In this document: positions 3,097-47,731 of the stretch, in pieces | Layout of the letters: every line of letters begins with the position of its first letter | Position numbering within the stretch: position 1 is the first letter of the stretch | From: Botryllus schlosseri | Lineage: Eukaryota | Assembly: GCA_051294905.1 (NCBI GenBank) | Contig: CM119371.1 | Location: forward strand, 23,376,001-23,440,000 | Direction: 5' to 3' | DNA: 64,000 bases | Position numbers and translations under genes: made by a program | Notes under the pieces: model-generated | Told to the model about the DNA's origin: nothing | Database searches by the model: none | Seen by the model: the letters and a program-made list of their open reading frames with translations, nothing else

Positions 3097-3420
3097 CTAT
3101 ATAGATACGGGGACTTGCAGCTGGTTAATTTTATACATTGCTTTGGCTAGTCCAAAAATATAAATACCGCTAATTTTAGGAATGCGCAACTTTTTGTAAT
3201 ACGGAGCAAGTGGACTATAAAGTCGTATTCGAGCCATTACTCTTGATGCTTTGTTTTGAACGACGTGCAACTGGTTCAATAGGGTTTTCGTAGAAGATCC
3301 CTAAACTATAATACCATAATGTAGGTGTGAATGTATGGTAGAGAAGTAAACAATGCGGAGAAATAGGTTTGGAGCTATCCGGTGAAGCTTCCATAATACA
3401 CCAATATTACGTTTTGCGCA
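3097..3420 (-). mobile_element. Non-LTR retrotransposon (L2/CR1-group) ORF2 C-terminal fragment, degenerate
   Basis: Minus frame reads RNIGVLWKLHRIAPNLFLRIVYFSTIHSHLHYGIIV*GSSTKTLLNQLHVVQNKASRVM..., the typical post-RT Y..L.H..L.YG..VWG.....L..LQ.KA.R segment, with TGG>TAG. Confidence 0.8.
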
Positions 3421-3480
3421 TAAATTCGTGCCCTATTGGACCTAGATCTATATGAATTCCAATGTACAGACCGTATAATG

Positions 3481-3828
3481 CAGTGGTTCCCAACCTTTTT
3501 CGCCCCATCGCCCCCTTTTCAAGGTCAACACGGATCATCGCCCCCCAAATTTTGTGTACCGAAAATTGGGCATACAAACTGTAATCACCGGCGGGTTGAC
3601 TAAATGTCTAAATGTCTAGTTTGACACACTTTTGTAACTAAATTTCCGTGGGTTGACTGAAAAAAAAGAAAAATAAGGTCAGCCGTTTTGGCGCGTCATC
3701 GCCCCCCTATCGCCCCATATGCTATTTTCGCCCCCTTTGTCCTTTTACGCCCCCCTGTCGCCCCCTTCGTCATTTTCGCCCCCCTAGACCGCGAAATCGC
3801 GCGATATCGCCCACGTTGGGAACCACTG
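3481..3828. mobile_element. hAT-type MITE
   Basis: TIRs CAGTGGTTCCCAAC / GTTGGGAACCACTG; 8 bp TSD GTATAATG / GTATTATG (7/8); many internal CGCCCC subterminal repeats. Confidence 0.85.
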
Positions 3829-11125: not shown

Positions 11126-12500
11126 TCAGTTGCTCTTCCTCCAGCACAAGAAATCTATCCATTTTCGCATTTGAGGCAAGAAATCATTTTCCAGCCAGTC
11201 CAATCGTGAATCGTCTGGGCTGCAATATGGCTTCAAGTCGGCGTTGTAGCTGAAGTTGGTTGATGTATTCATAATGTCTAACCACTTGTTGAAAATACCG
11301 GCAAACCATGCAGAAGCTTCCATATCGTCACCTCTCATCGCTCGCATAATACGCGCAACACTATTAGACCAAAGCTGAGCAGCAAAAATCACCCGCATCT
11401 TTGCAAAGCTTTGCATACGAAAATCTGCATCCGTCAATTTGCAGCATCTCAATTCCGTCGTTTCAAACAGTTTGACAACAGCCGTAAAATGCCGCCATCG
11501 AATAAATTTACCATCCTTGATGAGAAGTTTCGTACCACCAGTGCGGATGGCGTAGATGTCGTTGCGTACGGTTTTTAACAAATGGGGAGGGTCGAAAATC
11601 AAAAATATCTCATGCTGAGGGTTGAATATATTTTTGCATTTGTAAGGATAGTATAAGTTCAAGTTATTCAGCTCTTGGAACATCTTGCGATTTGCACTGA
11701 GTCCATCAGCAACAAACGCAGCTACCCGAAATTCACAGTCCTCCAAGATGCCGACTCATTCCCAGAATAAACTTGAAAGTTGAAATGAAGCCAGCGACTT
11801 TTTGCGTAGTATGCCAAGGGTTTGGAAAAATACGTTACCAGGCCCCTGGCATAAACTTGAAGAGCATGTGAAGCTGGTCACCACCATATACAGGTCTCGA
11901 CTCCCCAAGATCAACAAATCCTACAATTATGTCTTTCGTTGTACTGAATAAAAAATTCTCTTTCACTGAAAATGCAAAAAATCAGAAGTAGTTCGACACA
12001 TTGAACAGCATTGCTGAAATATTTGCAATGAAGTTTTCGACAAAGCTATAAAGTCATGAGAACACAATCTAGCCAATTTACAGGCAAATTTAAGGTTGGA
12101 ATTGCTCCAATTTTCAAATTGATCGATTTGTGTCCTGTCCGCAAAAGCAAATGCATTAGACATTAAAACGAAATTCGTTTTGTCTGTTTTACCAGTCAAC
12201 TACCATGGGAATCAAAATATATAGTCAAGGTAGCCTACCACTCTGTAGTGTTTAGTTAGGCAATGATGACGCGTACAGTATAGAATCATTTCCTCACCTT
12301 TCAACATATCAGATGACGTGAATGAAGTTCGCAAATCTTTAAATCGTCTTTTTTGTACAATTGATCCAGCCACGGATCTTGACGCATGCTCCTTATAAAT
12401 TTCTCAAGGTTTTCCGCCCATTCATATTTTGCGCCAGTGCAAAAACGTTTTGCTGGAACTTTGAACAAATGTGCAATGACTGAGGTATTCATCTATCAAC
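11126..12500 (-). pseudogene. P-element/THAP9-like transposase, frameshifted, intron-containing
   Basis: Motifs ADGLSANRKM, FDPPHLLKTVRN, KMRVIFAAQLWSNSVA, FNKWLDIMN. A THAP-like exon (F.VP...W....ICELH) at ~12299-12500 is bounded by a minus-strand acceptor (ttctcactag) and donor (gtgagg). Frameshifts occur near 11750-11960. Confidence 0.88.
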
Positions 12501-17010: not shown

Positions 17011-17726
17011 TAATCTTCTTTTGAAAGGATGCCGCGAGGTCCCAAAAGTTGAAAACCACTGTAATAAACCATAATTAGCAAGGATAAGGCCGAAGTTTCC
17101 TCGCTATTTATAAAATCTGAACACCCCTAATTGGCGTCGCCGTTATTCCAGTTTAATCTTCGACAATATCAAATATATATATCGTTCAGTGAATTCTCCC
17201 GGTCTATATTGCGCATGAATTCGTTTTGCAGTGTTACGGTGAATCTTATTTGCAAGTTATTGTAATGACATCTTCAATGTTACAAGATTACTATATCGAC
17301 AGAGCAATGCCGTTAGCTGTCTCTAAACGCCACTTGTAGCAGTAGAGATCGACGATAACTAGCGTTACAATCCAAATACTAATAATTGGTTTCAATCGCC
17401 GGATTACAACGTAGCCACAGGGTTACTGCACTGGTTCCCAGATCCCGTTTTATGAACGGTTCTAGACGCTAGTAGCACATGCAGGGGTACGGAGGTTAAC
17501 CAGAAATATGCTTCATGTTTGAAGCGATTCGCTGTAGCCCGACATGATGTATTTTTGGAGTGGATTCGCGTCCGTCAAATTAGAGATTTTGTAACGGCGA
17601 TGCATGATATTTTTATTGTTGTTGCAGGTTTTATTATACTCTTTAGAACCAGAATCAAGATCGTTTACTCTGTCGTCTTTAAGGTGACCCGTAATATAGC
17701 GATACCAAACGCTCAGCTATATTATT

Positions 17727-18692
17727 ATGGAAATCTACTGGATAAGAAGAAAATTAACTTATATCAGTGATCGCAAATTCCTGTTGATTGTGGCGTTAAT
17801 GTTACTGGACACCGCTGCAAACTTCTACTCCACCATACAGTACTGTACCCGCAATGACCTGATACAAGGAAAGCTACGAGGCATATTGGCGGCGGTGTGT
17901 GTCGTTATTGGTGTCTGCGTAAACGTCGAGTTCATTAAACAAGTCCGTGTGGCCAAGCGAGTAGCTAAGAGCTCGAAGGAATGGAAAGATTTGGTTTATC
18001 GCTATTTGATGACGTCGAAACATGTACAAACCATTTGTGAATCAATCCCTCACTTGTGGATCAGCCTCTATCTGCTGTCGACGAAAACTAGTATGGAAAT
18101 ACAGGACAATCTGTTGACCTATGCATCGCCCGCGATATCCTTCTGTTCCATATTATTTTCGCTAAATTTGCCGTACGGAGAGTATCTCAAGACCAAAGGC
18201 ATTCAGGCATCTTTAGCAGAGAGGTACCTCGTATTTGTGGCCAGACTAGCAGTATTCGTTACGAGGATGTCAGTTTTCATTCATTTCACAGTGGTCTTGG
18301 AATTCATAGCCGCTTTTCTACTTTTCGTTTTGTGGTTTGTTCGCTATATTTTACTACAATTCTGGAGGGGCCAAGATAAAGATAATTTTTTAGACTGGTT
18401 TCATTCGAGGAACGGCGGGTTTACAGTGGCAACTCATTTCCTGCTTACCCCGTTTTTGCCGCATAAATGTAGCATCACAGGTGTACTACAAATGTGTGTT
18501 TTCTTTTTCGATCGAATAGTTGTAGTGGTTATCTCTAATGTTCTACATAACAGTCAGGTTGCTCTATATCAACCGCCAGGTCTGATCAGTTATTAAGACG
18601 TTAAAGTTTGCAGTATTATATCTATGGTTTACGTGATATTTTCCATAGCTGTCAGTTAGATGTCCTCTTGGATAGCCCGCATGACACGATAG
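17727..18692 (+). pseudogene. XK-related membrane protein copy 2, truncated by premature stops
   Basis: Colinear paralog of 1720-2682 (MEIYWIRRKLTY..., ICESIPHLWISLYLLSTKT). TAA at 18594-96 replaces GAA. Homologous coding continues as DVKVCSIISMVYVIFSIAVS to a second TAG at 18657-59. AATAAA at 18725-30 sits in a homologous 3' UTR. Confidence 0.7.
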
Positions 18693-27110: not shown

Positions 27111-29495
27111 AAGGGTTGTTCAGAATTGACCGACTTTCAAAAAGTCCAGGTTTTCAGTCTGATTCCCATGCCTTATAACTTAAAAACATATTCTGGCTAC
27201 TTTTTTTTTGTAACTCGTCCCCTGCATCCGTGTGCACATTGAGCTGGAATAATAGCAGCTGAAAATAGGGGATTCCCCTAAAATCTGAGTGTCACGATTT
27301 TACCTAGCCTAGTTAAAGTGACATATAACATGGATTTATGCAGCTGTTGCGGTTTGGAGTGCTACAAAATCCCACTATATAAGGCATTCCTAGTTCAGGA
27401 TATCATTTCCATGTCCCACATTGCCTTAGAACTGCTCAAAACTACCTAAAACTGATAGTCATTTTGTTGGATCACATATCCTACACCCCTCAAACCTACC
27501 CGGCACTGTTCATCAATTTCCTGGATCCCCATGTGCAAGAATACAACTGTAAATGTAACATCCACTCACAGCCACATAATAAACATCACAGGAAACGAAA
27601 AATAAGGCAAAGAAAGAGATCAACTTGGCAAAATATTACATAAATCAGGTGGATGAAATGGTTGATTTCGAGAAATCTGCATATCTGTTCCGGTGATCTT
27701 CCACAGCTTGTAGGAGGCTCGCTCGCTGTTTTTTGTCATCCGTTATGAACTTTGGAATTTAACAAAATCTGTTAGAGCTTTTGTGTTTGACACAACATCC
27801 TCAAACACTGGTAAAAACAAAGGTGCGGTTCCGTTACTTGAAGAATTGATTAACAGGAAAGTTTTCTACAATGCCTGTCACCATCATATTTATGAACTGG
27901 TCATTCGAGAGGTTTGGAAGTGTTTGTTTGGATCGACAACCACAGGCCCTGAAAACACGGATTTTATTACCTTCAAGAAGAAGTGGAAACATTTTGATAA
28001 ATCAAGAAGCTATAAAACGCTGAAGTTTATTGAAGGCAGCTGGTTGGCGATGAAAGCTGATGAAGCAAAGCAAGAAATAATTCCACTGATGAAACCCAAT
28101 GATGGAAAGCAGAAAGAAGTCTTGATAAGAGATGACTACAGAGAGTGTGCAACAGGCACCTTGGCGATTTTGGATGACAAATATGTTGATCATCGTTTTC
28201 GCAAGCCTGGTGCTACTCATAGCGCTAGATGGATGAGTCAAGTCATGTACTGTCAAAAAATGTTCATGTGCAGTGAGCAAATGGACTATTCTGAAGAGTT
28301 CATTGAAAAGTTGGAACGAATCAATACATTCATTGCTTTGTTTTAAGTTCCAGCTTGGTTGAAAACTGGTATTGCATGTGACGCACCGTCGAATGATCTC
28401 AAATTCCTTCATGACATGAAAAATTTTTCATTATGCGATCTCACTGTTGCTGATGTGGCATACAAGAAATTGCGAAAACATCATTGGTATCTAACTGAGG
28501 AAATGGTGGTATTTACCACGTTCTCGGCTAATCCAAATATTCCTGGCAAACTGACGGAAGCGATGGCTGCTAAATTGCTGAAAATGCCAATCCCTGAAAA
28601 ATTTCGTAGAGGTAGCCTATGCCTCTCAGTCTGATCTCTGACTCTGTCTCTGAGTCAATGAGTATGGTCGATTTGAATGGGCCAGAATCCTTGTTTCTAT
28701 TTGATGCTATACATGTGGAACATGATTGGTTGAGTCTTCCAGTTTCGGAATGGCACATTGATCCGGATTTCGTGACTGCTCAAGAATTTGTGAATACTGT
28801 TGAAGTAGTTAATGATGCAGCAGAGCGTATGGTAAAATTGAATACCGACTATGCTGCGTTCATAACGGATGACAAAAAACAGCGAGCGAGCCTCCTACAA
28901 GCTGTGGAAGATCACCGGAACAGATATGCAGATTTCTCGAAATCAACCATTTCATCCACCTGATTTATGTAATATTTTGCCAAGTTGATCTCTTTCTTGG
29001 CCTTATTTTTCGTTTCCTGTGATGTTTATTATGTGGCTGTGAGTGGATGTTACATTTACAGTTGTATTCTTGCACATGGGGATCCAGGAAATTGATGAAC
29101 AGTGCCGGGTAGGTTTGAGAGGTGTAGGATATGTGATCCAACAAAATGACTATCAGTTTTAGGTAGTTTTGAGCAGTTCTAAGGCAGTGTGGGACATGGA
29201 AATGATATCCTGAACTAGGAATGCCTTATATAGTGGGGTTTTGTAGCACTCCAAACCGCAACAGCTGCATAAATCCATGTTATTTGTCACATTAACTATG
29301 CTAGGTAAAATTGTGAAACTCACATTTTAGGGGAATCCCCTATTTTCAGCTGCTATTCTTCCAGCTCAATGTGCACACGGATGCAGGGGACGAGTTACAA
29401 AAAAAGTAGCCAGAATATGTTTTTAAGGTATAAGGCATGGGAATCGGACTGAAAACCTGGACTTTTTGAAAGTCGGTCAATTCTGAACAACCCCA
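27111..29495 (+). mobile_element. hAT-superfamily (hATm-like) element with ~637 bp inverted arms, inserted in a Penelope-like fragment
   Basis: 27113-27750 is the reverse complement of 28858-29493. Termini GGGTTGTTCA match the element at 50928-53101. Flanked by duplicated ACGCACA, and the flanks rejoin into sequence colinear with 58210-58500. Confidence 0.88.
27751..28963 (+). pseudogene. hATm-like transposase, C-terminal half only, with a stop and a frameshift
   Basis: FDTTSSNTG, ACHHHIYE, PGATHSARWMS, HHWYLTEE, VVNDAAERMVKL, LLQAVEDHR motifs spread over ORFs 27783-28346, 28359-28634 and 28619-28963. Confidence 0.85.
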
Positions 29496-29900: not shown

Positions 29901-31889
29901 CAGGAGCCGAAATATAGGATATATAAACGAAATAACTAAAAAATTTAATTATTCCGAGACGGTGCTTGGAAAACCGGTTTCGGGGAGTACTTTCTATGGA
30001 TGGAGCGAACCCCTGAAGGGTTCCGGTTCGTGTAAACGCGAATATTTTCGAAAGTTTTTGTGTGAATCCGAAGGTGCACACTAATCCATGTCCATGTGCT
30101 TACCTTTACTCCTCTTCCTGCAACGTCATGGACGACTTTGACAGCACTTGCGAGTGAATCATTTTGCCGAAAGAGTCTAATAAATGCCCGGCATAAGCGG
30201 CTAATTCAGCCAATCCTTAGATCATTCAGAACTTGAATTATATACCACGACCGGGCCTAATAAAATCAGACATAGTGTCATTGTTAAGTTTTATATTTGT
30301 ATTCAATGATGATGCATCCCTTCTGAAACGAGACATTCGTTCGACACTTGCATGGGCGCCTTTGCAATATTTATCCATGTGTTCTGTGCTTTCCTCGGTC
30401 AAAAAAGGCATGTAAGATTCGACGGTTTCCTTCACAATAAGCAAGTCATGCTTCAAAATTTTATTTAAAGCTGCTGTTGTTTGTGCATCATCATGTATTT
30501 CGTATCTTAACATGTCCTGAATTAATCTTAAGTATTTATCTGCGAACCAACGTATAACATGCTTACAGAATCACCGCCCTTAGCAGACTACTTCAACAAC
30601 TAATCAGCAAGCAACCAACCACCGTCGAGATTATTGAAGCGTCGTCGATTAGCCAATCGAGATCCGTGATCTCGTGATTACTAGTCGTCTTGTCGCTGTT
30701 CTACGGTTACTTTTAATTGAGTATACTCCTTGCTGTCAATACCATGGAATTATAATTCAATGTAAGCGACGTCTATCGACCAAAATGTTGCAAGAGAGAT
30801 GTAGTCAATTCCGAACTTATATATGTAGAGTTGAAATAAGTGTTAAGTCGTAAGGAATTTGCTAGCCGGTAATACCGTCGAAATCGAAGATATAGGAGCA
30901 ACATTATTTAGTTCTTAATAAAACATAACATTTTAATCCACAAACCGAGTAGTAAGGGTAAGGAATTTTGTTGCCCGCCAATCAGAGTGCGCCACGTCAT
31001 CATAATTGCCACGCCCATTTTCATACCCTAAGGGTACATTCATCTGCTACGTCATCTGTGCCACATCATCAAGCGCCACGCTATAGTGCCACATCATCCA
31101 TCCATTGCTATATCATCGCTGCATTGATTGCCGCATCTTGATACTTTTCTCAGATATTGTATTATGTGTATTTAGGACTAATATCATCCGTCCATATTTT
31201 TTTAAACTTGATTTTATGTGTATAAGTTACGGTTTCTGCAGTTTCCACATTTTACGACTCATGATTGCCGCGTCAAAACTTACCTTGGCTAGAATCGACA
31301 GATTTTCTGTAATGTGTAAATTAATTACTTAAATGCGACTTGATAATAATAATCCCTAGAATAATATAAAATGCGATTTTGAGTGCAGGCAGATAGCGGT
31401 TTCGATTTCCGAGGTCTCCACATTTTAAGCCTTATTATCAGCTCGCAGTACAACCGCTACCCGTATGATGTTTGCATGTCGAGTATAAGGGTATTTACCT
31501 CAGCACTAAAATGCCAACGGACTAGCCGCAGGGGTCCGGTTCTCGTCGCTATAATTAAACGAACACCTTCGCCGCAGGTACGCGATCCCCGACGTTATAA
31601 TGATAGGACCAAATTAGCCGCATGAAAGCGAGTCTAATGAATATAACGGCAGACACCAAGTTAGTTGAAAAGTAAAACTAATCGTGACCGATGCAAGACG
31701 GATTGAAACAGCGCTTTCGCTCGATTCTTGTAGTGACCACATTTCATACGATTCAGTCCTTTTCGTGTCACTAGAATTAGGGTGATTAAACCGACAGTAT
31801 GAAACGCCGCCCGCGTCTTATAACGTAATAATGTAAGCTGCGTCGGGTGCCCGAATAGTCTTGTAGAATTTTCTAAAGTCGTAACAGCT

Positions 31890-32012
31890 TAGTAGCATAT
31901 ACGCGAATCCCAAGGCAAAAATAATCAAACGAACTATAGCCGCCGCCGTGCGAAGCTTCAGTAGCATATACGCAAATCCCAAGGCGAAAATAATCGAACG
32001 AAGTATAGCCGC
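31890..32012 (+). repeat. ~70 bp tandem duplication in left arm (mirror ~44977-45099)
   Basis: AGTAGCATATACGC(G/A)AATCCCAAGGC(A/G)AAAATAATC(A/G)AACGAA(C/G)TATAGCCGC occurs twice. Confidence 0.9.
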
Positions 32013-32621
32013 AGGCGCGAGATTCGCCGGGCTCTAATCATACAAACACTATCTCTGCCTGTACGCGAACCCTAGCGTTATAACGACATGGTCTAATTAG
32101 CGCATTCTGAAGCCAGAAATTTATTCAACTTCATTGAGATAGCCACGATTTAAAGATGGTTATCGAGTGAGACAATAGCACTCGTCAAGGTTATACAAAC
32201 ATAACCTTAAACTAATCTTTACTTCATAACATATAAGGTATGAAAGCACGCTACATAGAAGTGAAAGTAGTCTAGAAACATAACTACTTACTGAAAAATC
32301 GTTACGTAGAAGTGTACTTATATTGGAGCAGAATTGTGATCGATACATTAATGATTTTAATACTCTGTATTTTTAATTACCCACACCTATGAGTCGAAAT
32401 GTTCTTAAGTAACTCATGTTTACAATATCACCTAAACGCAAAGTTCCAAAATTTCCATGCTGATCAAATACCACAAACTTTGCTTGCTTTCAGAGTAAGT
32501 AACAAAGCGCATAACAGATTTCACCTAAATAAGTCGGTACTCCGAAAATTTTGTTAATTTTGATTACTATGTTTTGATGATAACTTGCTTCCGAGAAATA
32601 AATAACATTCATTATACGTTA

Positions 32622-34410
32622 GATGATACTTTTCCTTGATATTCTATTTTGTGTATTTAGGGCTAATTCGACATCACTATGTGGCGACAGGCCTGATTTG
32701 AACACACTAATTTTGCGAATTAAACTTATCGCCCAACACGGACACTCAATGAAGAGCACCCTGGAGACATACATAAATGCTCCACAATTCTTGACATATA
32801 TTATAATGAGCATATAATAAGCTGACAAAACCTATACTTGAGTACTCCGAAATGTACAAGTACTTAACCTTTACACGACGTTTTTGTAAAATGAATACTA
32901 ATTTTAATGAAAAATAAAAATTATGTACTCAAGTAGGTTTTTGTCTACACGCACCAACTACTCAAGTGTTTATTACACAGGAATGATTCATTAAGTATAG
33001 CGCAAGCAGGCCAAACCTATACTTGAGTCCTCCAAAATGTACAAGTACTTCGCTATGTACTCCCTCCACGTAAAAAGTGACTAGGTTTTAGACTACTTTA
33101 TCGATCTTCGATGTTGCGCAAATACCACAAACTTTGCTTGCTTTCAGAGCTGGCAACTAAATGCAAGACATACTTTACGCAAAAGTCTCTATTCTGAAAA
33201 TTTTATCAAGTTAATACTTTAAAAAGTTTTACTTGAGCACTACGGAATGTACACGTACTTTACCTTTACAGGACGTGTTTTGTAAAATGAATACTAATTT
33301 TATTGAAAAAATAAAAAATAAAAAAGGGCGAAAAATTACATTTTATCCCGGAACGCAACAAGATAAATCGTATGAATTTGTAAACTACTTATTCACGACA
33401 TAATAATTCTACTTGTATACTTTTTCATATTTTGTAACAATTTTAGTATTACTTAAATAAAATACGGAAAATATACTAATCGAAAAATTCGGTAACCAAT
33501 TTCGCAATGATGATACTTTTTCTTGATATTCTATTATGTGTATTTAGGGCTAATGCGTCATCACTATGTTGGCGACAGGCCTGATTTGAACACACTAATT
33601 TTGCGAATTAAACTTATCGCCCAACACGGACACTCAATGAAGAGCACCCTGGAGACCCACATAAATGCTCCACAATTCTTGACATATAATATACTGAGCA
33701 TATAATAAGCTGACAAAACCTATAGTTGAGTACTCCGAAATGTACAAGTACTTTACCTTTGCACGACGTTTTTGTAAAATGAATACTAATTTTATCGAAA
33801 AAGAAAAATTATGTACTCAAGTAGGTTTTTGTCTACACACACCAACTACTCAAGTGTTTATGACACAGGAATGATTCATTAAGTATAGCGAGAGCAGACC
33901 AAACGTATACTTGAGTACTCCAAAATGTACAAGTACTTCGCTATGTACTCCCTCCACGTACAAATTGAGTAGGTTTTAGACTACTTTATCGATTTTCGAT
34001 GTTGCGCAAATACCACAAACTTTGCTTGCTTTCGGGGCTGGCAACTAAATGCAAGTCAGACTTTACGCAAAAGTCTCTATTCTGAAAATTTTATCAAGGT
34101 AATAGTTTAAAAACTTATACTTGAGCACTACGAAATGTGCAAGTACTTTACCTTTACACGACGTTTTTTGTAAAATGAATACTAATTTTATTGAAACAAT
34201 AAAACATAAAAAAGAGCGTAAAATTACATTTTATCCCGGAACGCAACAAGAAAAATCGTATGAATTCGTAAACTACTTATTCATGACATAATAATAATTC
34301 TACTTGTACACTTTTTCACATTTTATAACACTTTAAGTAGTACTTAACAGTTTCAGTTTTAAATAAAATACGGAATATAAATATAATCGAAAAATTAGGT
34401 AACCAATTTC
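32622..34410 (+). repeat. ~888 bp tandem duplication, left arm only
   Basis: GATGATACTTTT... at 32622 and 33509 start two diverged copies. The right arm has a single copy (mirror-ORF coordinate sums shift from 76969 to 77857). Confidence 0.92.
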
Positions 34411-34549
34411 GCGTAGACTATGCATACAAATGAGGAAAGTTACATCAACGCGTGTTAACTAGTTGTATCGAGTTATCGAATGATTTTTTCCTTACATCAA
34501 AACAACTAGAATGTGTAACTACATTAAAAACGTATCTAAATGAGCTCCG

Positions 34550-36105
34550 GGGCATTGTGATTATGCAACATATCAAATTTCATCACACATTTCATGATGG
34601 AACAACTTTAAAACTAACGCAGTTCTATAGCAACTTTTGCCTAAATCTGTTTTCGGTAGCGTCTACATATACATAGTCTGCTTTAATAACAGAATTACCA
34701 TGGTAATATGTGACTCCTCACGTTGAAACTTGGTACGTAGTTGTAGGACATTGTGAATATGCAGCATACCAAATTTCGTCGCGCATTTCATAATGAAGAA
34801 ACTTTAAAACTAACGCGGCTCTACATCGACTTTTTGCGTACATCTGTTTTGCGGGAGCGTATAGCACGTACCTATACATAGTCAACTTTAATAACGGAAT
34901 TACCATGCTTAACATTGAATCCCAACTCTAAACTTGATACGTAGATGTAGGACATTATGGCAATGCACCATGCTAAATTTAATCACACATCTAATGATGG
35001 AACACCTTTAAAACTAACGCAGTCGATTACCGACTTTTACGCATATCTGTTTTGCGTGAACATAGCATATACCTATACATAGTCAATTTTAATAACAGAT
35101 TTACTGTGTTAAACATTGAATTCCTACCTTTATAGCTGGTACGCGGTTATAGGACATACCAAATCCAAATCCACCATACCACATCCCATCACACATTTCA
35201 TGATGGAACAACTTTAAAACGAACGCGGCTCTACATCGACTTTTTGCGTACATCTGTTTTGCGGGAGCGTATAGCACGTACCCATACATAGCCAACTTTA
35301 ATAACGGAATTACCATGCTTAACATTGAATCCCAACTCTAAACTTGATACGTAGTTGTAGGACATTATGGTAATGCACCATGCTAAATTTCATCATACAT
35401 CTAATGATGGAACACCTTTGAAACTATCGCAGTCGAATACCGACTTTTACGCATATCTATTTTTCGTGAACATAGCATATACCCATACATAGTCAATTTT
35501 AATAACAGAATTAGCATGCTAAACATTAAATTCTCACCTTGAACGTTGGTACGCAGTTGTAGGACATAATAACAATGGACCATACCAAATTTCGTCAGAT
35601 ATTTCATGATGTAACACCTTTAAAACCAACGCAGTTCTATACAGACTTTTGGCTAAATCTGTTTTTCCGTAGCGTAGCACGTACCTATACATAGTGAACT
35701 TTAATAACGGAATTACCATGTTAATAATCGACTCCCCACCTTGAAACTCGCTACGCAGTTGTAAGACATTATGACAATGCACCATGTCAAATTTTGTTAC
35801 GCATTTCATGATTGAACAACTTTAAAACTAACGCAGTTCCATACCGACTTTCGCAGGAGCGTAGCACGTACCTATGCATACTCAACTTTAATAACGGAAT
35901 TACCGAGCTAAACATTGAATGCGCAACTTGAAGATTGGTTCACGGGTGTAAGACATTATGACAATGGAACACATCAAATTTCATCACACATTTCATGATG
36001 AAACACCTTTAAAACTAACGCAGTTCTATACCAACTTCGCGTGAATCTGTTGCGGGAGCGTAGCACGTACCTATGCGTGATCAACTTTAGTGATGGAATT
36101 ACAGA
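34550..36105 (+). repeat. Tandem array of 8 x ~200 bp units (left arm)
   Basis: Anchor CTTTAAAACTAACGC (or variant) at 34606, 34802, 35006, 35212, 35416, 35618, 35820 and 36007. Confidence 0.92.
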
Positions 36106-36656
36106 TGTAATTAAGTTTCAACACTTTTACAATGATTCGTCTTGCTTCCTATAACATTCCACTTGATGCCCTCGTTATTAGGCTGCAATCTCAGGCTGGG
36201 CTATGTCTTGAAGCCTACCGGACTCTGCAAATTGTTTCGATTTATTCTGTCCGTTTCAATTTAAGATAAGGAAGCCCATTTCACTCAATGTATCGATGCC
36301 TACGGTACTCTACAAAATTTTCTGATTAATTCTCCCTATGCTTATTTATCATAAGAAAGATGATTTGACAACTAAGGTACGAAATACTTCTTCGCCTGAG
36401 CTAGGCCGCAGCGCTTGGAGTGGAATTTTACGGGGTATGTAGACTCATTTCGTAGGGCTCTATGCCATAGGAGCATAGTTTACGCTCCAATTCGATTCCC
36501 ACACATTCCATATAATTACTAACAGAACCATTGAGTACCAGCCTTGACATTTTCCGTAGTACTAGATGGGATGTATACAATTTCATGACATCCGACAGTA
36601 CGACGGAGACTATAAAAATATCGAAAGAAGCCCTCTATTCTTTTCTGAAATAATCA

Positions 36657-36782
36657 AGGTTTTATCAGGACTTCCCTTCATATAAACTCCTGCAGAATCA
36701 CTAATAACCTCTCAAGTTTAGGTTTTATCAGGACTTCCCTTCATATAAACTCCAGCAGAATCATTTATAACCTCTTAAGTTT
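36657..36782 (+). repeat. ~63 bp tandem duplication (mirror ~40990-41115)
   Basis: AGGTTTTATCAGGACTTCCCTTCATATAAACTCC(T/A)GCAGAATCA occurs twice. Confidence 0.9.
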
Positions 36783-38862
36783 ACTCACCTCGTTTAATCT
36801 GATACTCGTGTACCAAATCCCTATTTTCCGCAAGTATGATAGAGGCTATCGCTCGACACTCAACGATTCGTAATTTTGCTGGAATACAAGTACAATTGGG
36901 GTTGAAAAGTAACTGATATAGGTGGTTATGTTTGTAGGATATTTACACTTCTACTTACCGCTTTTCATGAGAAACTACCTACTTTTAGGACTTTATATTT
37001 CAAAGTAGTTTGAGGTTACGTTTGTATCACCTTGATAAGTGCTATTATCAAAAACTGCTTTTGCTAAACTCTTACACTTTCACTGAACTTCAACACTGAA
37101 TCTTGTATAGTAGATAGAAAAGGAACACTATTAACATAAGGTAAGTGAGAAGCACGCAAATGTCGATTGCATACAAACAAACTGCGCTAACTTTCATAGT
37201 TGTTAAGTATAGAAGTACTCGTACTTCTTGAGAATACTCAAGTAGGTTTTTTGCCTACATGCACCACATAGTCTCAAGTCCTTATGATATTGGAGTACAT
37301 CAACTTCATGATAGCTAGAGTATTAAACAGTAATAGACCTAGAGTACTAACGTTTTACTTACTCGGAAATGACTACTTCTACCTTATTTTAAAGGGTACC
37401 TCGTTCGAAGCGAAAATGTACGTGGTTTTGGATAACATCCAAGATGTAGGCTCACTTTGACGGTTACTTCGTAAAACTCAAATATTGCGCAGTGAGAGTT
37501 CGCAAATTCTCGAAGTATTTTTGTTATTTTTATTGCGATAAGTCATTCTGCAGCGCGAAAATGCGTCGTTGGATATAGATGAAACTAGCACCACTCATCA
37601 AGACCGCTGAAAACAGTACGTTTCAACATTTAGTAGCAGTAAATTTCTAGTAAAGTACAAGACGTGATGATTTCCGACTGAGTTAAAAAGTAAGTATTGC
37701 AGGTATAGTTTACCTGAAAACCGAATACTCTGAAATAGAAGTAGCTGCAGTGTAAATAGTTAATCACTTGATTAAGTTTAGTGCAAGCAGATAAAACCTA
37801 TACTTGAGTAGTACAAAATGCACGAGTACTTCGCTATCGCCTCCCTCCACGTAATAAGTGACTACGGTTTAAGACTGCTTTTAGCGATACTCGTCGGTTT
37901 CAGTTTTAGATAGAATTCGGAAACCAAATAATTTCATAAACATAAGCTAATTTAATGAATTTACTCGAATGTACTATGCCGCGCTGATAAGAATAATTAT
38001 AATATACTTATCATGTTACAGCGATTTTTCTAGCGTGGAAAATCTTTAAAATGTAGTAAGCAGGCCAAATGAAGATATTCGTTGAGCTGAATAAACATAA
38101 AAAATACTCTAGACTACTTTATCGGTACTTTACAGTTTCAGTTTTAGATAAAATTTGTCCCTTTCACCTATAATTACAACTTCTCGCTATCTAAACATGT
38201 TTAGAATATATTATTTGCGATGATACGAACCCGTGAAGTACTCAAGTAGCTTTTCGTAGGATATAGATGAAACTGACAACACTCACCAAGACCGCTGGTC
38301 CACTGAAAAAAGTACATTGTAACAGTAAAGTCCTACTAAAGTACAAGAAGTAATGATTTCCCAGTTAGTTGAAAAGTAAGTATTGAAGGTATAGTTTGCT
38401 CGAAAAAACGAAAAACTCTGAAATAGAAGTAGATGCAGTGTAAATAGGTAATCACTTCATTAAGTATAGCGCAAGAAGGCCAAACCTATACTTGAGTACT
38501 GCAAAATGTACAAGTACTTCGCTATGTTCTCCCTCCACGTAAAAAGTGACTAGGTTTTAGAGTACTTTATCGGTACTCGACAGTTTCAGTTTTAGATAAA
38601 ATTTGGTAAGACTTTAAATTTTAAAGTAGTTTGAGCTTACGTTTGTATCACCTTGACAAGTAACATTATCAGACATGAAAATGATACTATCACCTAATAT
38701 AGAAGTTAACACGCGTCAATGTGCTTCGGAATTCACGAGAAATTGCTTACTAAGAGAAGTATATTCTTGTATACACAATAGTGGAGAGAATCTTTAAAAT
38801 GTAGTGAGCAGGCCGATGGGTATTCGTTTAGTTGTATAGGCATAAAAAACAGTCCCGCGCGC

Positions 38863-38908
38863 GCGCCTTAGTATTAGGTGGTAGGGTTAGGAAGTATTTT
38901 GTTTAAGA
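38863..38908. other. Central non-palindromic loop of the giant palindrome, telomere-like and G-rich
   Basis: GCGCCTTAGTATTAGGTGGTAGGGTTAGGAAGTATTTTGTTTAAGA lies between AGTCCCGCGCGC (38851-62) and GCGCGCGGGACT (38909-20). Confidence 0.9.
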
Positions 38909-41437
38909 GCGCGCGGGACTGTTTTTTATGCCTATACAACTAAACGAATACCCATCGGCCTGCTCACTACATTTTAAAGATTCTCTCCACTATTGTGTAT
39001 ACAAGAATATACTTCTCTTAGTAAGCAATTTCTCGTGAATTCCGAAGCACATTGACGCGTGTTAACTTCTATATTAGGTGATAGTATCATTTTCATGTCT
39101 GATAATGTTACTTGTCAAGGTGATACAAACGTAAGCTCAAACTACTTTAAAATTTAAAGTCTTACCAAATTTTATCTAAAACTGAAACTGTCGAGTACCG
39201 ATAAAGTACTCTAAAACCTAGTCACTTTTTACGTGGAGGGAGAACATAGCGAAGTACTTGTACATTTTGCAGTACTCAAGTATAGGTTTGGCCTGCTTGC
39301 GCTATAGTTAATGAAGTGATTACCTATTTACACTGCATCTACTTCTATTTCAGAGTTTTTCGTTTTTTCGAGCAAACTATACCTTCAATACTTACTTTTC
39401 AACTAACTGGGAAATCATTACTTCTTGTACTTTAGTAGGACTTTACTGTTACAATGTACTTTTTTCAGTGGACCAGCGGTCTTGGTGAGTGTTGTCAGTT
39501 TCATCTATATCCTACGAAAAGCTACTTGAGTACTTCACGGGTTCGTATCATCGCAAATAATATATTCTAAACATGTTTAGATAGCGAGAAGTTGTAATTA
39601 TAGGTGAAAGGGACAAATTTTATCTAAAACTGAAACTGTAAAGCACCGATAAAGTAGTCTAGAGTATTTTTTATGTTTATTCAGCTCAACGAATATCTTC
39701 ATTTGGCCTGCTTACTACATTTTAAAGATTTTCCACGCTAGAAAAATCGCTGTAACATGATAAGTATATTATAATTAATCTTATCAGCGCGGCATAGTAC
39801 ATTCGAGTAAATTCATTAAATTAGCTTATGTTTATGAAATTATTTGGTTTCCGAATTCTATCTAAAACTGAAACCGACGAGTATCGCTAAAAGCAGTCTT
39901 AAACCGTAGTCACTTATTACGTGGAGGGAGGCGATAGCGAAGTACTCGTGCATTTTGTACTACTCAAGTATAGGTTTTATCTGCTTGCACTAAACTTAAT
40001 CAAGTGATTAACTATTTACACTGCAGCTACTTCTATTTCAGAGTATTCGGTTTTCAGGTAAACTATACCTGCAATACTTACTTTTAACTCAGTCGGAAAT
40101 CATCACGTCTTGTACTTTACTAGAAATTTACTGCTACTAAATGTTGAAACGTACTGTTTTCAGCGGTCTTGATGAGTGGTGCTAGTTTCATCTATATCCA
40201 ACGACGCATTTTCGCGCTGCAGAATGACTTATCGCAATAAAAATAACAAAAATACTTCGAGAATTTGCGAACTCTCACTGCGCAATATTTGAGTTTTACG
40301 AAGTAACCGTCAAAGTGAGCCTACATCTTGGATGTTATCCAAAACCACATACATTTTCGCTTCGAACGAGGTACCCTTTAAAATAAGGTAGAAGTAGTCA
40401 TTTCCGAGTAAGTAAAACGTTAGTACTCTAGGTCTATTACTGTTTAATACTCTAGCTATCATGAAGTTGATGTACTCCAATATCATAAGGACTTGAGACT
40501 TTGTGGTGCATGTAGGCAAAAAACCTACTTGAGTATTCTCAAGAAGTACGAGTACTTCTATGCTTAACAACTATGAAAGTTAGCGCAGTTTGTTTGTATG
40601 CAATCGAAATTTGCGTGCTTCTCACTTACCTTATGTTAATAGTGTTCCTTTTCTATCTACTTTTCAAGATTCAGTGTTGAAGTTCAGTGAAAGTGTAAGA
40701 GTTTAGCAAAAGCAGTTTTTCATAATAGCACTTATCAAGGTGATACAAACGTAACCTCAAACTACTTTGAAATATAAAGTCCTAAAAGTAGGTAGTTTCT
40801 CATGAAAAAGCGGTAAGTAGAAGTGTAAATATCCTACAAACATAACCACCTATATCAGTTACTTTTCAACCCTAATTGTACTTGTATTCCAGCCAAATTA
40901 CGAATCGTTGAGTGTCGAGCGATAGCCTCTATCATACTTGCGGAAAATAGGGATTTGGTACACGAGTATCAGATTAAACGAGGTGAGTAAACTTAAGAGG
41001 TTATAAATGATTCTGCTGGAGTTTATATGAAGGGAAGTCCTGATAAAACCTAAACTTGAGAGGTTATTAGTGATTCTGCAGGAGTTTATATGAAGGGAAG
41101 TCCTGATAAAACCTTGATTATTTCAGAAAAGAATAGAGGGCTTCTTTCAATATTTTTATAGTCTCCGTCGTACTGTCGGATGTCATGAAATTGTATACAT
41201 CCCATCTAGTACTACGGAAAATGTCAAGGCTGGTACTCAATGGTTCTGTTAGTAATTATATGGAATGTGTGGGAATCGAATTGGAGCGTAAACTATGCTC
41301 CTATGGCATAGAGCCCTACGAAATGAGTCTACATACCCCGTAAAATTCCACTCCAAGCGCTGCGGCTTAGCTCAAGCGAAGAAGTATTTCGTACCTTAGT
41401 TGTCAAATCATCTTTCTGATGATAAATAAGCATAGGG

Positions 41438-41612
41438 AGAATTAATCAGAAAATTTTGTAGAGTACCGTAGGCATCGATACATTGAGTGAAATGGGCTTC
41501 CTTATCTTAAATTGAAACGGACAGAATTAATCAGAAAATTTTGTAGAGTACCGTAGGCATCGATACATTGAGTGAAATGGGCTTCCTTATCTTAAATTGA
41601 AACGGACAGAAT
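41438..41612 (+). repeat. 85 bp tandem duplication, right arm only
   Basis: AGAATTAATCAGAAAATTTTGTAGAGTACC... starts at 41438 and again at 41523; single copy in the left arm (~36245-36335). Confidence 0.92.
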
Positions 41613-41751
41613 AAATCGAAACAATTTGCAGAGTCCGGTAGGCTTCAAGACATAGCCCAGCCTGAGATTGCAGCCTAATAACGAGGGCATCAAGTGGAAT
41701 GTTATAGGAAGCAAGACGAATCATTGTAAAAGTGTTGAAACTTAATTACAT

Positions 41752-43307
41752 CTGTAATTCCATCACTAAAGTTGATCACGCATAGGTACGTGCTACGCTC
41801 CCGCAAACAGATTCACGCGAAGTTGGTATAGAACTGCGTTAGTTTTAAAGGTGTTTCATCATGAAATGTGTGATGAAATTTGATATGTTCCATTGTCATA
41901 ATGTCTTACACCCGTGAACCAATCTTCAAGTTGCGCATTCAATGTTTAGCTCGGTAATTCCGTTATTAAAGTTGAGTATGCATAGGTACGTGCTACGCTC
42001 CTGCGAAAGTCGGTATGGAACTGCGTTAGTTTTAAAGTTGTTCAATCATGAAATGCGTAACAAAATTTGACATGGTGCATTGTCATAATGTCTTACAACT
42101 GCGTAGTGAGTTTCAAGGTGGGGAGTCGATTATTAACATGGTAATTCCGTTATTAAAGTTCACTATGTATAGGTACGTGCTACGCTACGGAAAAACAGAT
42201 TTAGCCAAAAGTCTGTATAGAACTGCGTTGGTTTTAAAGGTGTTACATCATGAAATATCTGACGAAATTTGGTATGGTCCATTGTTATTATGTCCTACAA
42301 CTGCGTACCAACGTTCAAGGTGAGAATTTAATGTTTAGCATGCTAATTCTGTTATTAAAATTGACTATGTATGGGTATATGCTATGTTCACGAAAAATAG
42401 ATATGCGTAAAAGTCGGTATTCGACTGCGATAGTTTCAAAGGTGTTCCATCATTAGATGTATGATGAAATTTAGCATGGTGCATTACCATAATGTCCTAC
42501 AACTACGTATCAAGTTTAGAGTTGGGATTCAATGTTAAGAATGGTAATTCCGTTATTAAAGTTGGCTATTTATGGGTACGTGCTATACGCTCCCGCAAAA
42601 CAGATGTACGCAAAAAGTCGATGTAGAGCCGCGTTCGTTTTAAAGTTGTTCCATCATGAAATGTGTGATGGGATGTGGTATGGTAGGTTTGGATTTGGTA
42701 TGTCCTATAACCGCGTACCAGCTATAAAGGTAGGAATTCAATGTTTAACACAGTAAATCTGTTATTAAAATTGACCATGTATAGGTATATGCTATGTTCA
42801 CGCAAAACAGATATGCGTAAAAGTCGGTAATCGACTGCGTTAGTTTTAAAGGTGTTCCATCATTAGATGTGTGATTAAATTTAGCATGGTGCATTGCCAT
42901 AATGTCCTACATCTACGTATCAAGTTTAGAGTTGGGATTCAATGTTAAACATGGTAATTCCGTTATTAAAGTTGACTATGTATAGGTACGTGCTATACGC
43001 TCCCGCAAAACAGATGTACGCAAAAAGTCGATGTAGAGCCGCGTTAGTTTTAAAGTTTCTTCATTATGAAATGCGCGACGAAATTTGGTATGCTGCATAA
43101 TCACAATGTCCTACAACTACGTACCAAGTTTCAACGTGAGGAGTCACATATTACCATGGTAATTCTGTTATTAAAGCAGACTATGTATATGTAGACGCTA
43201 CCGAAAACAGATTTAGGCAAAAGTTGCTATAGAACTGCGTTAGTTTTAAAGTTGTTCCATCATGAAATGTGTGATGAAATTTGATATGTTGCATAATCAC
43301 AATGCCC
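41752..43307 (-). repeat. Mirror copy of the 8 x ~200 bp array (right arm)
   Basis: Reverse complement of 34550-36105. Confidence 0.92.
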
Positions 43308-46300
43308 CGGAGCTCATTTAGATACGTTTTTAATGTAGTTACACATTCTAGTTGTTTTGATGTAAGGACAAAATCATTCGATAACTCGATACAACTAGTT
43401 AACACGCGTTGATGTAACTTTCCTCATTTGTATGCATAGTCTACGCGAAATTGGTTACCTAATTTTTCGATTATATTTATATTCCGTATTTTATTTAAAA
43501 CTGAAACTGTTAAGTACTACTTAAAGTGTTATAAAATGTGAAAAAGTGTACAAGTAGAATTATTATTATGTCATGAATAAGTAGTTTACGAATTCATACG
43601 ATTTTTCTTGTTGCGTTCCGGGATAAAATGTAATTTTACGCTCTTTTTTATGTTTTATTGTTTCAATAAAATTAGTATTCATTTTACAAAAAACGTCGTG
43701 TAAAGGTAAAGTACTTGCACATTTCGTAGTGCTCAAGTATAAGTTTTTAAACTATTACCTTGATAAAATTTTCAGAATAGAGACTTTTGCGTAAAGTCTG
43801 ACTTGCATTTAGTTGCCAGCCCCGAAAGCAAGCAAAGTTTGTGGTATTTGCGCAACATCGAAAATCGATAAAGTAGTCTAAAACCTACTCAATTTGTACG
43901 TGGAGGGAGTACATAGCGAAGTACTTGTACATTTTGGAGTACTCAAGTATACGTTTGGCCTGCTCTCGCTATACTTAATGAATCATTCCTGTGTCATAAA
44001 CACTTGAGTAGTTGGTGTGTGTAGACAAAAACCTACTTGAGTACATAATTTTTATTTTTCGATAAAATTAGTATTCATTTTACAAAAACGTCGTGCAAAG
44101 GTAAAGTACTTGTACATTTCGGAGTACTCAAGTATAGGTTTTGTCAGCTTATTATATGCTCATTATAATATATGTCAAGAATTGTGGAGCATTTATGTAT
44201 GTCTCCAGGGTGCTCTTCATTGAGTGTCCGTGTTGGGCGATAAGTTTAATTCGCAAAATTAGTGTGTTCAAATCAGGCCTGTCGCCACATAGTGATGTCG
44301 AATTAGCCCTAAATACACAAAATAGAATATCAAGGAAAAGTATCATCTAACGTATAATGAATGTTATTTATTTCTCGGAAGCAAGTTATCATCAAAACAT
44401 AGTAATCAAAATTAACAAAATTTTCGGAGTACCGACTTATTTAGGTTAAATCTGTCATGCGCTTTGTTACTTACTCTGAAAGCAAGCAAAGTTTGTGGTA
44501 TTTGATCAGCATGGAAATTTTGGAACTTTGCGTTTAGGTGATATTGTAAACATGAGTTACTTAAGAACATTTCGACTCATAGGTGTGGGTAATTAAAAAT
44601 ACAGAGTATTAAAATAATTAATGTATCGATCACAATTCTGTCCAATATAAGTACACTTCTACGTAACGATTTTTCAGTAAGTAGTTATGTTTCTAGACTA
44701 CTTTCACTTCTATGTAGCGTGCTTTCATACAAATCTGCTTACTTTTATAACCTTATATATTATGAAGTAAAGATTAGTTTAAGGTTATGTTTGTATAACC
44801 TTGACGAGTGCTATTGTCTCACTCGATAACCATCTTTAAATCGTGGCTATCTCAATGAAGTTGAATAAATTTCTGGCTTCAGAATGCGCTAATTAGACCA
44901 TGTCGTTATAACGCTAGGGTTCGCGTACAGGCAGAGATAGTGTTTGTATGATTAGAGCCCGGCGAATCTCGCGCCTGCGGCTATACTTCGTTCGATTATT
45001 TTCGCCTTGGGATTTGCGTATATGCTACTGAAGCTTCGCACGGCGGCGGCTATAGTTCGTTTGATTATTTTTGCCTTGGGATTCGCGTATATGCTACTAA
45101 GCTGTTACGACTTTAGAAAATTCTACAAGACTATTCGGGCACCCGACGCAGCTTACATTATTACGTTATAAGACGCGGGCGGCGTTTCATACTGTCGGTT
45201 TAATCACCCTTATTCTAGTGACACGAAAAGGACTGAATCGTATGAAATGTGGTCACTACAAGAATCGAGCGAAAGCGCTGTTTCAATCCGTCTTGCATCG
45301 GTCACGATTAGTTTTACTTTTCAACTAACTTGGTGTCTGCCGTTATATTCATTAGACTCGCTTTCATGCGGCTAATTTGGTCCTATCATTATAACGTCGG
45401 GGATCGCGTACCTGCGGCGAAGGTGTTCGTTTAATTATAGCGACGAGAACCGGACCCCTGCGGCTAGTCCGTTGGCATTTTAGTGCTGAGTTAAATACCC
45501 TTATACTCGACATGCAAACATCATACGGGTAGCGGTTGTACTGCGAGCTGATAATAAGGCTTAAAATGTGGAGACCTCGGAAATCGAAACCGCGATCTGC
45601 CTGCACTCAAAATCGCATTTTATATTATTCTAGGGATTATTATTATCAAGTCGCATTTAAGTAATTAATTTACACATAATAGAAAATCTGTCGATTCTAG
45701 CCAAGGTAAGTTTTGACGCGGCAATCATGAGTCGTAAAATGTGGAAACTGCAGAAACCGTAACTTATACACATAAAATCAAGTTTAAAAAATATGGACGG
45801 ATGATATTAGTCCTAAATACACATAATACAATATCTGAGAAAAGTATCAAGATGCGGCAATCAATGCAGCGATGATATAGCAATGGATGGATGATGTGGC
45901 ACTATAGCGTGGCGCTTGATGATGTGGCACAGATGACGTAGCAGATGAATGTTCCCTTAGGGTATGAAAATGGGCGTGGCAATTATGATGACGTGGCGCT
46001 CTCTGATTGGTGCGTAACAAAATTCCTTAGCTACACTACTCGCGCTGTTCGAGAAAACAGAGGATTAGTATCGCATTTCCGTATCAATGCTATCATTTTC
46101 ATCCCATGACGTGGACGAATACTTATGATATCGAAAATTGGATACCTGCTGGTATGTATCAACATGAATCAAGCTTGTAACCTATCGCATAGCTCAATTT
46201 GCACCTTTTTACAATCCATGTGAACGAATTAGGATCGTTTTCATAACTACTTACTTACTTGAGTACTTTTAAAGTCAGTCAATTCTACTTCAACTTCAAG

Positions 46301-46769
46301 TAGTTTTAGGTTGCTTTAGGTTGCTTATGGAAGAAGTACTTTTACATCATCATTTACATCATCATTTAACGAAGTCAATATACCAACGGGAACGCCCGAA
46401 GATGTTTTATTATTATTTATAGGGCCTATCTATTCCAACACACCTCAGTCGATGAGCTCTACCGGTAAATCTGATTATCTGAGCAGAGAGAGGATAAAAA
46501 TTGATAGCAATATATATGCAATTCCCGATCATATTGACCGATTCAATCATGAGTTATATAAATTTTTCGCGCTTCGCGCTATTAGGCGACACAACCACTA
46601 AACTGGCACCCAATGTAGATGATAAGTACCGGAAAAAAGCTTAGAGCTCTAGGGTAGTTAGTGTTATCACCCTATGGAGGGCCTGGTTGCGCACTGTTGT
46701 CCAAGGGCCTGCGCAGTAAGTTGGCGTGTTTTCGCAGACTCGTGAAAAATTAGAGGGAACATTGCTCGT

Positions 46770-47731
46770 GACATTGCAATAACTCAATGTTTCTGTATTA
46801 CTTCTAATGTTTCTGTATTATTCACGAAGAATAACTGAGTGTGCAATTGTTACTGCACCCAAGACTTTGCCATCTTGGAGAAAGGCACACTTTAGGATCC
46901 CTTTTGAGCTACCTATAGGCATTTGCCATTCACTGGGCTTGTAAATTGGAATTCCCAACTCCTCCAGTAATCCATGGTAACGGTATCATGCAAATGCCAG
47001 TATATCACGTCAATTCACAAAGCTACCGAAAGTAGGCCTGCGAAGAAAAGGCTGTTTCTCCTGATCGAAAGTGAGATACCGTACACTACCTTGCCAAGTA
47101 ATCTTTTCTAACTTCATAAGGATGTTCAAAGTTCCGAAGATTTCTATTCCAAGTCCCAAAGCTATGTCAGATCAATAACTCGTGTTGATGGACTACTTTA
47201 CGTTCTGAATCAACTTCGATTGCGACCATCCTCATCATTTGACCTGCTATCCCCAAGATCTTCATCTTGATCCAAATTGTCGAGCTTATGGGACTTTCAG
47301 GTTGCTCGGATAAGGTGAATGGGGCATTGGAACTATAGCTGTTAGCAAATGTCACGTTTAATTTCCCTGCCATATCCTGCAGTTTGTATCAAATATGAGT
47401 GTGAAATATCCTCGGATGATTGCATCCTCTAACCAAAAATGGGTGAAAACATCGGCCTAGATCGATACCAGTAGCTTTTCCTACATAATTCAATCGAGCC
47501 CTTGACTATATAACTCATTATATGGTAAGAGTGTGGATTTCTATATGGTATGGAAAAGTAATATGCCTAAATTCACGAAAATTTGCATATTTTGGGGATA
47601 TATCATAGAGCTAAAAGTTGACGTGATAGAAGAAAACCAGTGGCATTTTTGGAATCAGCACGCCAGAATTAGCCTAAATCAAGTGCAAAATCAAAGTCAA
47701 CAGAATTTTCGCTCAAAATTGTTGCCCAGTG
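46770..47731 (-). mobile_element. Decayed DNA transposon with one intact end (tentatively Tc1/mariner-related m44 type)
   Basis: Minus frame YHGLLEELGIPIYKPSEWQMPIGSSKGILKCAFLQDGKVLGAVTIAHSVILRE*Y; terminus ...AAAATTGTTGCCCAGTG followed by TA. Family name is from memory and tentative. Confidence 0.65.

Follow-up and report, generated by a model that had tools for sequence, protein, structure and literature searches.

A conserved stem-loop at the centre of gene-less palindromic elements with Polinton-type ends in Botryllus schlosseri

The window analysed here, a stretch of 64,000 nucleotides of Botryllus schlosseri contig CM119371.1 (GenBank assembly GCA_051294905.1, forward-strand positions 23,376,001 to 23,440,000), contains a 15,093 bp palindrome without genes and with Polinton-type ends, at the centre of which a short GC-rich stem closes a G/T-rich loop. 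This stem-loop is the conserved centre of a high-copy, gene-less palindromic family with Polinton/Maverick ends, in which it probably forms the turn of a snapped-back hairpin intermediate whose arm would be recopied before Polinton-assisted reinsertion. The apex had been proposed, in an original prediction made from the letters of the window alone, as a defined structural site rather than a random breakpoint, and this was borne out: it recurs in hundreds of copies and survives deletion or replacement of the arms to within ~20-45 nt of the loop. Among the roles then suggested, the hairpin turn is the best reading of an apex that is retained while its arms reshuffle, and nothing pointed to a nicking or resolution site.

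The stem-loop and the element around it

Both halves of the predicted CG-repeat stem were located at the apex (38851-38862 and 38909-38920), enclosing, as had been described, a 46-nt loop (38863-38908) with four GG tracts (38877-38891). The loop begins with two extra GC units. The arms beside the apex were 100% complementary across 1177 nt in self-comparison, and folding of the apex gave a z-score of -14.4, none of 200 shuffles being equally stable. The minus strand can form one more short helix, which reduces the loop to 33 nt and creates a 3-nt bulge. The arms, originally called very AT-rich, are AT-rich but only moderately so, with a GC content of 33% beside the stem and 36% over the whole arm.

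TTAGGG is the telomere repeat of the genome, arrays of it being present at 7 of 12 contig ends examined. The suggested telomere-like character of the loop holds in part. Ten consecutive nucleotides (38882-38891) agree exactly with the TTAGGG repeat, which goes beyond chance: a match of this length occurs in 1 of 1391 46-nt tiles of the window and in 8 of 5000 shuffled loops. No complete TTAGGG hexamer is present in the window loop. The predicted G-quadruplex potential proved weak. With a stable motif taken as four G3 tracts or a G4Hunter score of at least 1.2, the window loop scored 0.92 and offers a two-tetrad pattern at most, and among 63 symmetric loops of the family none had a three-tetrad pattern and 12 reached the cut-off.

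The features of the element and its apex are as follows, with positions given in the window.

30942..30947, plus strand: left flank AAACCG, without match to the right flank CGCGCT (46041-46046)
30948..46040, no strand assigned: complete palindrome of 15,093 bp, gene-less and with Polinton-type ends (self-comparison)
30948..38862, plus strand: left arm of 7915 nt, a patchwork of non-coding modules with internal repetition
30948..30953, plus strand: left terminal AGTAGT
30954..30977, plus strand: 24-nt subterminal stretch, variable from copy to copy, with 7 differences from the right end (46011-46034)
30978..31140, plus strand: subterminal sequence common to Polinton family C ends (end comparison)
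32622..34412, plus strand: tandem duplication of ~890 nt, in the left arm only
34563..36102, plus strand: degenerate tandem array of 187-202-nt units, mirrored at 41820-43294
about 38840-38862, plus strand: A-run and left clamp half, the portion retained in the most divergent symmetric copies
38851-38920: apex stem-loop, centre of the palindrome 30948-46040
38851..38862, plus strand: left half of the GC clamp, alternating CG, AGTCCCGCGCGC (sequence)
38863..38908, plus strand: 46-nt non-palindromic loop, G/T-rich and C-poor on this strand, with TAGG units
38909..38920, plus strand: right half of the GC clamp, GCGCGCGGGACT (sequence, folding)
38909..46040, minus strand: right arm, 7132 nt (comparison with the left arm)
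46035..46040, minus strand: right terminal AGTAGT (ACTACT on the plus strand)

No stop-to-stop frame of at least 100 aa was present within 30948-46040, and Rfam gave no match at the gathering score in 30000-47000. The right arm differed from the left by 47 substitutions in 7024 aligned sites and by indels of 888, 85 and 21 nt. The two flanks differ, and a target duplication is therefore lacking in the window copy, which probably arose by recombination between two copies or by a mis-join; among 8 matches no reciprocal partner of its unequal ends was found. A CCAAT-N9-CCACG motif (30978-30996) is present in the ends of the window element and of family C, in the spacing of the endoplasmic reticulum stress response element; in families A and B, it is an E-box that follows the CCAAT of the Polinton ends.

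Copies of the family and helper Polintons

Exact matches to a 20-nt stem motif numbered 243 on the forward and 232 on the reverse strand of the 495-Mb genome (control: 0 and 0). First-look searches gave 619 candidates for the apex, of which all 40 scored were at least 95% identical, and 1020 for the element end. The family carries AGTAGT...ACTACT end motifs, and among 26 elements with both ends a 6-bp target duplication was perfect in 20, had one mismatch in 2 and two mismatches in 2, and was missing in 2; it thus holds for the family, not for the window copy. Thirteen of these 26 elements were 14.0-16.2 kb long, the others comprising 4 longer gap-duplicated, 3 further longer, one of 17.1 kb and 5 shorter elements. 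In 20 stretches of 10 other copies there were few frames of at least 150 aa, none of them identified as a Polinton gene. Because the Polinton ends and target duplications are present and Polinton genes are lacking, the family is a non-autonomous Polinton derivative and not an autonomous member. From the same ends, the target duplications and the lack of own genes, we infer that it would be mobilised in trans by helper enzymes.

After merging of identical 120-nt contexts, 63 symmetric contexts contained 35 loop types of 27-45 nt. At most 3 C residues were present in 62 of the 63 loops and at least two TAGG units also in 62, with GGGTTAG in 52; a two-tetrad pattern was found in 55 and was missing from 8, and the TTAGGG hexamer occurred in none. 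The stem and the C-poor, TAGG-rich character of the loop persist in these copies, while the exact loop sequence varies. In one loop class the difference between copies was 1.0% in the loop and 2.2% in the adjacent 200 nt (23 copies chosen by similarity).

The arms are shuffled mosaics of non-coding modules. Symmetric relatives shared with the window about 240, 85, 47, 40, 30 or 25 nt of arm beside the stem, or the A-run only, the stem-loop being kept even where deletion or replacement of the arms comes within about 20-45 nt of the loop. A homologous apex is also present in three elements with family B ends, and in one of these only 234 of 7962 arm bases are shared with the window. One-sided truncations ended within 60 nt of the stem in 17 of 23 cases, a clustering expected if the apex folds in chromosomes. 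Two copies, at C1:10.29M (L356 2282-9266; 6985 bp, with a 5/6 target duplication) and C1:13.57M (L234/L202), have terminal-like sequence joined almost directly to the stem-loop, one arm being missing. The stem pattern matched 63 times in viral contigs, and in no case was the loop TAGG-rich or the stem extended by more than 6 paired bases. Two loop-like matches outside the family (L254, L255) were dismissed as relatives, as they belong to another repeat and occur at about the control rate.

A library adapter or barcode as the source of the loop was rejected, given the 35 distinct loops in 63 symmetric copies and the contigs of four other public runs (X2, X14, X6, X15) that cover the loop, one contig spanning both arms. 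Run X12 and two raw RNA runs did not cover the loop fully, and the 40 and 51 matching reads in raw single-cell data, none of which lies over the loop, are uninformative on expression. A scar of telomere fusion, also raised at the outset, is unlikely: the G-rich units lie on one strand only, head-to-head TTAGGG/CCCTAA arrays are missing, the 63 symmetric loops lack the TTAGGG hexamer, and the site lies in the middle of a mobile element that is itself interstitial. It is conceivable that the apex began as a telomere-like tail and folded back later. Double-apex elements were considered as rolling-hairpin concatemers and rejected, since each of the 6 compared contains a gap of 100 N together with direct copies that are 100% identical; they are assembly artefacts. 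Such 100-N scaffold gaps duplicate palindrome centres (L157, L158, L162, L163, L101, L094) and inflate copy numbers and lengths there. The copy at C8:19.52M (L039/L045/L169) has mirrored flanks, the inversion extending past the element, which is either a chromosomal fold-back or an assembly artefact.

Helpers were located via PF04665 and a capsid-like query, the latter giving 97 genome matches in several identity classes; a genome search with PF03175 gave no match, its control being likewise blank. A 17,590 bp copy of Polinton family C contains rve integrase and A32 ATPase domains, together with look-alikes of a capsid protein (0.98; DJR-like family on 24-30% of members) and of PF03175 (1211 aa, 0.97), the latter a protein-primed polymerase look-alike. 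In it, Pol A, B and C motifs were recognisable by eye. These motif names are as used for Polinton polymerases in the corresponding part of bioRxiv 10.1101/2023.08.22.554363. An insert in the helper polymerase (L106 frame 3-3635, residues about 700-790) gave RAP at E 1.6e-4, below the cut-off, and DUF559 at E 0.059, with no PDB match; it may be a Vsr-like nuclease domain of the kind present in some marine pPolB2 proteins. Near the right end of a family A Polinton (L084 2795-3565, 4263-4778) are two frames, one with a caspase domain and the other for a ubiquitin-conjugating enzyme.

The ends of this family C copy matched the window element at 76% over the first 68 nt, and another 88 nt of its right end (element positions 105-191) did so at 87.5%. 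Other palindromes carry instead 540-740 nt of the family C left end, and family B ends were found in three palindromes at 84-94% over 205-350 nt. The apex itself was not found in the helper Polintons, the best hit over 23 stretches having an E-value of 0.35, and in 7 family C stretches matches reached at most 11 nt exact or 19 nt at 84%.

Arm symmetry, the proposed hairpin route and its rivals

Symmetry was scored in 28 of 30 apex loci (two truncated loci dropped), in 378 pairs and over about 575 columns beside the stem. The pairwise differences, which reuse the same mutations, comprised 5040 that were copy-specific in both arms, 2 arm-specific, 0 flipped and 347 single. By column, 36 substitutions were private to one copy in both of its arms, and 11 columns were asymmetric. 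Over whole arms, two related pairs gave 44 and 41 both-arm differences, 0 and 0 flipped or arm-specific, and 13 and 36 single. The arms of single copies differed at 1, 3, 7, 9, 10 and 27 sites per 7.0-7.8 kb. Flip/flop of the loop relative to arm-specific variants had been put forward as the signature of hairpin replication; with 2 same-side, 0 flipped and 5040 symmetric differences, there are no stable arm-specific variants that could serve as its reference.

The 24-nt stretch inside the AGTAGT motif was distinct in 27 of 27 elements listed and the same at both ends in 24 of 26 satellites, as the palindromic copies may be called; C-type elements differed in it by 12.7 positions on average. 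Large rearrangements were likewise mirrored between arms. The occurrence of new mutations in both arms of a copy means that the arms were recopied from each other, and together with the identical 24-nt ends and the mirrored rearrangements it follows that each copy was made symmetric, from end to loop, after diverging from its relatives. The stretch itself is a fixed-length mosaic of short blocks between AGTAGT and CCAAT with nearly invariant flanks, and is variable also among family C helpers, perhaps because strands are often exchanged at the origin, or because helper and parasite are in conflict.

The route proposed for these elements builds on what is established, namely the element, its ends, the target duplications, the matching Polinton families, the arm symmetry, and the retention of the stem-loop across reshuffled arms and two end types; the step in which the apex acts as hairpin turn is one that we infer from these patterns. 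The protein-primed polymerase of the helper would start at an AGTAGT end and displace one strand, which would fold into a 7-8-kb hairpin, the GC clamp closing it and the C-poor loop staying single-stranded. The hairpin would then be copied from its open end, the template re-zipping behind the polymerase, and the new strand, once past the loop, would fold back at the GC clamp and copy itself, so that both arms derive from one. This fold-back copying is favoured; nick-directed mismatch repair in the hairpin could equalise the arms instead and would leave the same pattern. Occasional full read-through would yield a two-ended full-length duplex to be inserted by the helper integrase. The spacer of ~40 nt probably also lowers the instability of the inserted palindrome, and a G-quadruplex is probably not required. 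The near-helper length of the gene-less copies hints at a possible packaging constraint. A looped-out single strand is part of the model that was carried over from Polintons to Polinton-like elements, as the relevant text of PMC4046053 has it.

Several points weigh against this route. The data fit fold-back copying and mismatch repair equally, no hairpin molecule was observed, and for the panhandle, in which a displaced strand self-anneals via its terminal repeats and which explains the restoration of end homology, direct evidence is lacking according to the passage on it in PMC11886824. All apexes are homologous, which lets common descent alone explain part of the conservation, and no independent family with a convergent apex was found. 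The pair counts rest on recurring use of the same mutations in 28 copies chosen by similarity, the assembly breaks inside these palindromes, and the window copy is atypical in its unequal ends, lack of a target duplication and arm-specific 888-nt duplication. In one full-length copy, whose target duplication is perfect, the loop has 27 nt and no G-rich core, and the elements at C3:14.20M and C9:1.37M had no loop in the fetched stretch; the latter two are read as deletions after insertion.

The homology of all apexes would also suit an unlikely alternative, in which the apex is the scar of one founding fold-back that persists by descent, its ~40-nt spacer making the palindrome tolerable and its sequence being irrelevant. 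Loops varying by indels and substitutions into 35 types in 63, and the intact copy with a 27-nt loop lacking the G core, agree with this, as does the stalling of eukaryotic replication forks with a spacer of 12 bp but not of 52 bp (PMC7999016, in its part on spacer length). It does not account for symmetric deletions and module swaps that reach 20-45 nt of the stem and yet spare it, nor for a stem and a C-poor, TAGG-containing loop that outlast the exchange of nearly all of the arm in elements with either type of helper end; the lower divergence of the loop than of the adjacent 200 nt (1.0% versus 2.2% in one class) weighs weakly in the same direction, coming from 23 similarity-chosen copies. 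Less probable is that a protein recognises the apex in order to nick or resolve it, or that the apex imitates a telomere through a G-quadruplex or a telomere single-strand binding protein, in the style of the hairpin ends of poxviruses and parvoviruses. The 10-nt match to the host telomere repeat, GGGTTAG in 52 and the two-tetrad pattern in 55 of 63 loops, and the clustering of truncations at the stem could be so explained, but TTAGGG hexamers and three tetrads were found in 0 of 63 loops, a G4Hunter score of 1.2 was reached by 12 of 63, and the hairpin of the opposite strand would show a C-rich loop. Moreover, the element encodes no nuclease and concatemer junctions are missing, the six double-apex stretches being a 100-N gap with identical direct copies.

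Two further proposals are very improbable. The apex could be the middle of a small free mini-transposon whose insertion seeded the fold-back, which concerns the origin only and is compatible with the hairpin route. An internal module without the stem (38044-38109) is paralogous to the part of the arm that adjoins the stem, which gives the stem-loop the look of an addition, and a separate TTAGG-type minisatellite family with short inverted ends is common (most of 30 loci). A solo copy with unrelated flanks, the mark of a MITE, was, however, seen in none of 89 apex-like contexts (63 symmetric, 23 one-sided, 3 chance), a survey that took in part of a set of 403 matches and that a divergent or extinct family could escape; the boundary of the shared arm differs between subfamilies, leaving no fixed element end, and two minisatellite elements inspected show no GC clamp. 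The common short element concerned (most of L281-L309) has inverted ends of about 50 nt around TTAGG-type minisatellites and is a possible source of the loop units. Slightly less credible still is that arm identity arose by gene conversion after insertion, or by assembly and polishing, and not by a replication route. Gap-associated false duplications do occur at these sites, and the copy at C8:19.52M has mirrored flanks; yet 20 of 26 elements have unmirrored flanks, which carry the 6-bp duplication in direct orientation. Between the arms 1-27 differences per 7-7.8 kb persist, both ends carry the same version of the variable 24-nt stretch, which lies at the extreme margin of homology, and independent runs contain the loop, with one contig holding both arms.

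Related systems and significance

AGTAGT is the commonest Maverick end motif and goes with 6-bp target duplications, according to the section on ends in PMC8097293. The satellites resemble autonomous Polintons/Mavericks in their AGTAGT...ACTACT ends, 6-bp target duplication and the subterminal sequence of resident families B and C, and their size (14.0-16.2 kb in 13 of 26) lies within the 12.7-24.6 kb given for autonomous elements in parts of PMC8097293 and bioRxiv 10.1101/2023.08.22.554363. Their inverted repeats of 7-8 kb reach the 46-nt loop, whereas those of autonomous elements are given there as 46-1447 bp; unlike autonomous Polintons, the satellites are gene-less and have a conserved central stem-loop that was not found in the helper stretches searched. 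Polinton-type ends and a presumed dependence on a helper are shared with the non-autonomous Polintons Tlr1 (PMC5499653) and Polinton-N1A_NV (PMC11296320), which the descriptive parts of these papers present as gene-bearing and without a palindrome. Zebrafish Polinton-1N1, a term listed for PMC9341505, is another non-autonomous Polinton. The pertinent sections of PMC6431247, PMC11296320 and PMC5499653 mention no such palindromic element. Among the literature titles surveyed, Repbase being outside this scope, none described a palindromic gene-less Polinton element. Some zebrafish non-autonomous Polintons in Repbase have very long inverted repeats, and a published precedent for a palindromic non-autonomous Polinton is therefore possible.

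Poxviruses and parvoviruses have hairpin ends, and these as well as snap-back (copy-back) defective genomes are self-complementary, with an unpaired loop and two complementary forms. The satellites share the self-complementary sequence with a predicted unpaired loop; unlike poxviruses and parvoviruses they have no resolvase or Rep gene and no genuine concatemer junction, and are integrated into chromosomes, presumably by an integrase. Panhandle end repair in adenovirus minichromosomes and in PRD1, as cited in the text of PMC11886824, is similar in its protein-primed strand displacement, self-annealing of the displaced strand and restored end homology, all of which are proposed for the satellites. 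In adenovirus and PRD1, the terminal repeats alone pair, whereas in the satellites the whole element would pair, and these form an integrated natural family.

Elsewhere in the window, two intron-less-looking frames (1654-2682 and 17700-18596) are 74% alike at the DNA level, the first matching the XK-related family. A P-element-like transposase fragment (PF21788) is located at 11126-11755, and at 27113-29493 transposase-like fragments are enclosed by the inverted repeats (about 640 nt, 97.6%) of a decayed element.

More speculatively, the palindromes could be a lineage of hairpin satellites whose sole lasting identity is the stem-loop, the ends having been swapped with at least two helper families and the second arm being self-primed at the clamp; their helper-like length would then perhaps mean that they are packaged, and the telomere-like loop might shield the hairpin from the host. 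Polinton replication rests on a model, and the single-stranded fold-back intermediate is without direct demonstration, as stated for panhandles in general in the relevant passage of PMC11886824. Here hundreds of natural copies record arm-to-arm copying over the full distance from the terminal bases to the loop, and naturally occurring deletions narrow the needed centre to a short stem-loop, giving a defined molecule, a 7-8-kb hairpin, and a defined oligonucleotide for study. For B. schlosseri, the palindromes mark hundreds of fragile, assembly-breaking sites in the genome and represent a parasite of virus-like transposons, apparently moving between helper families.

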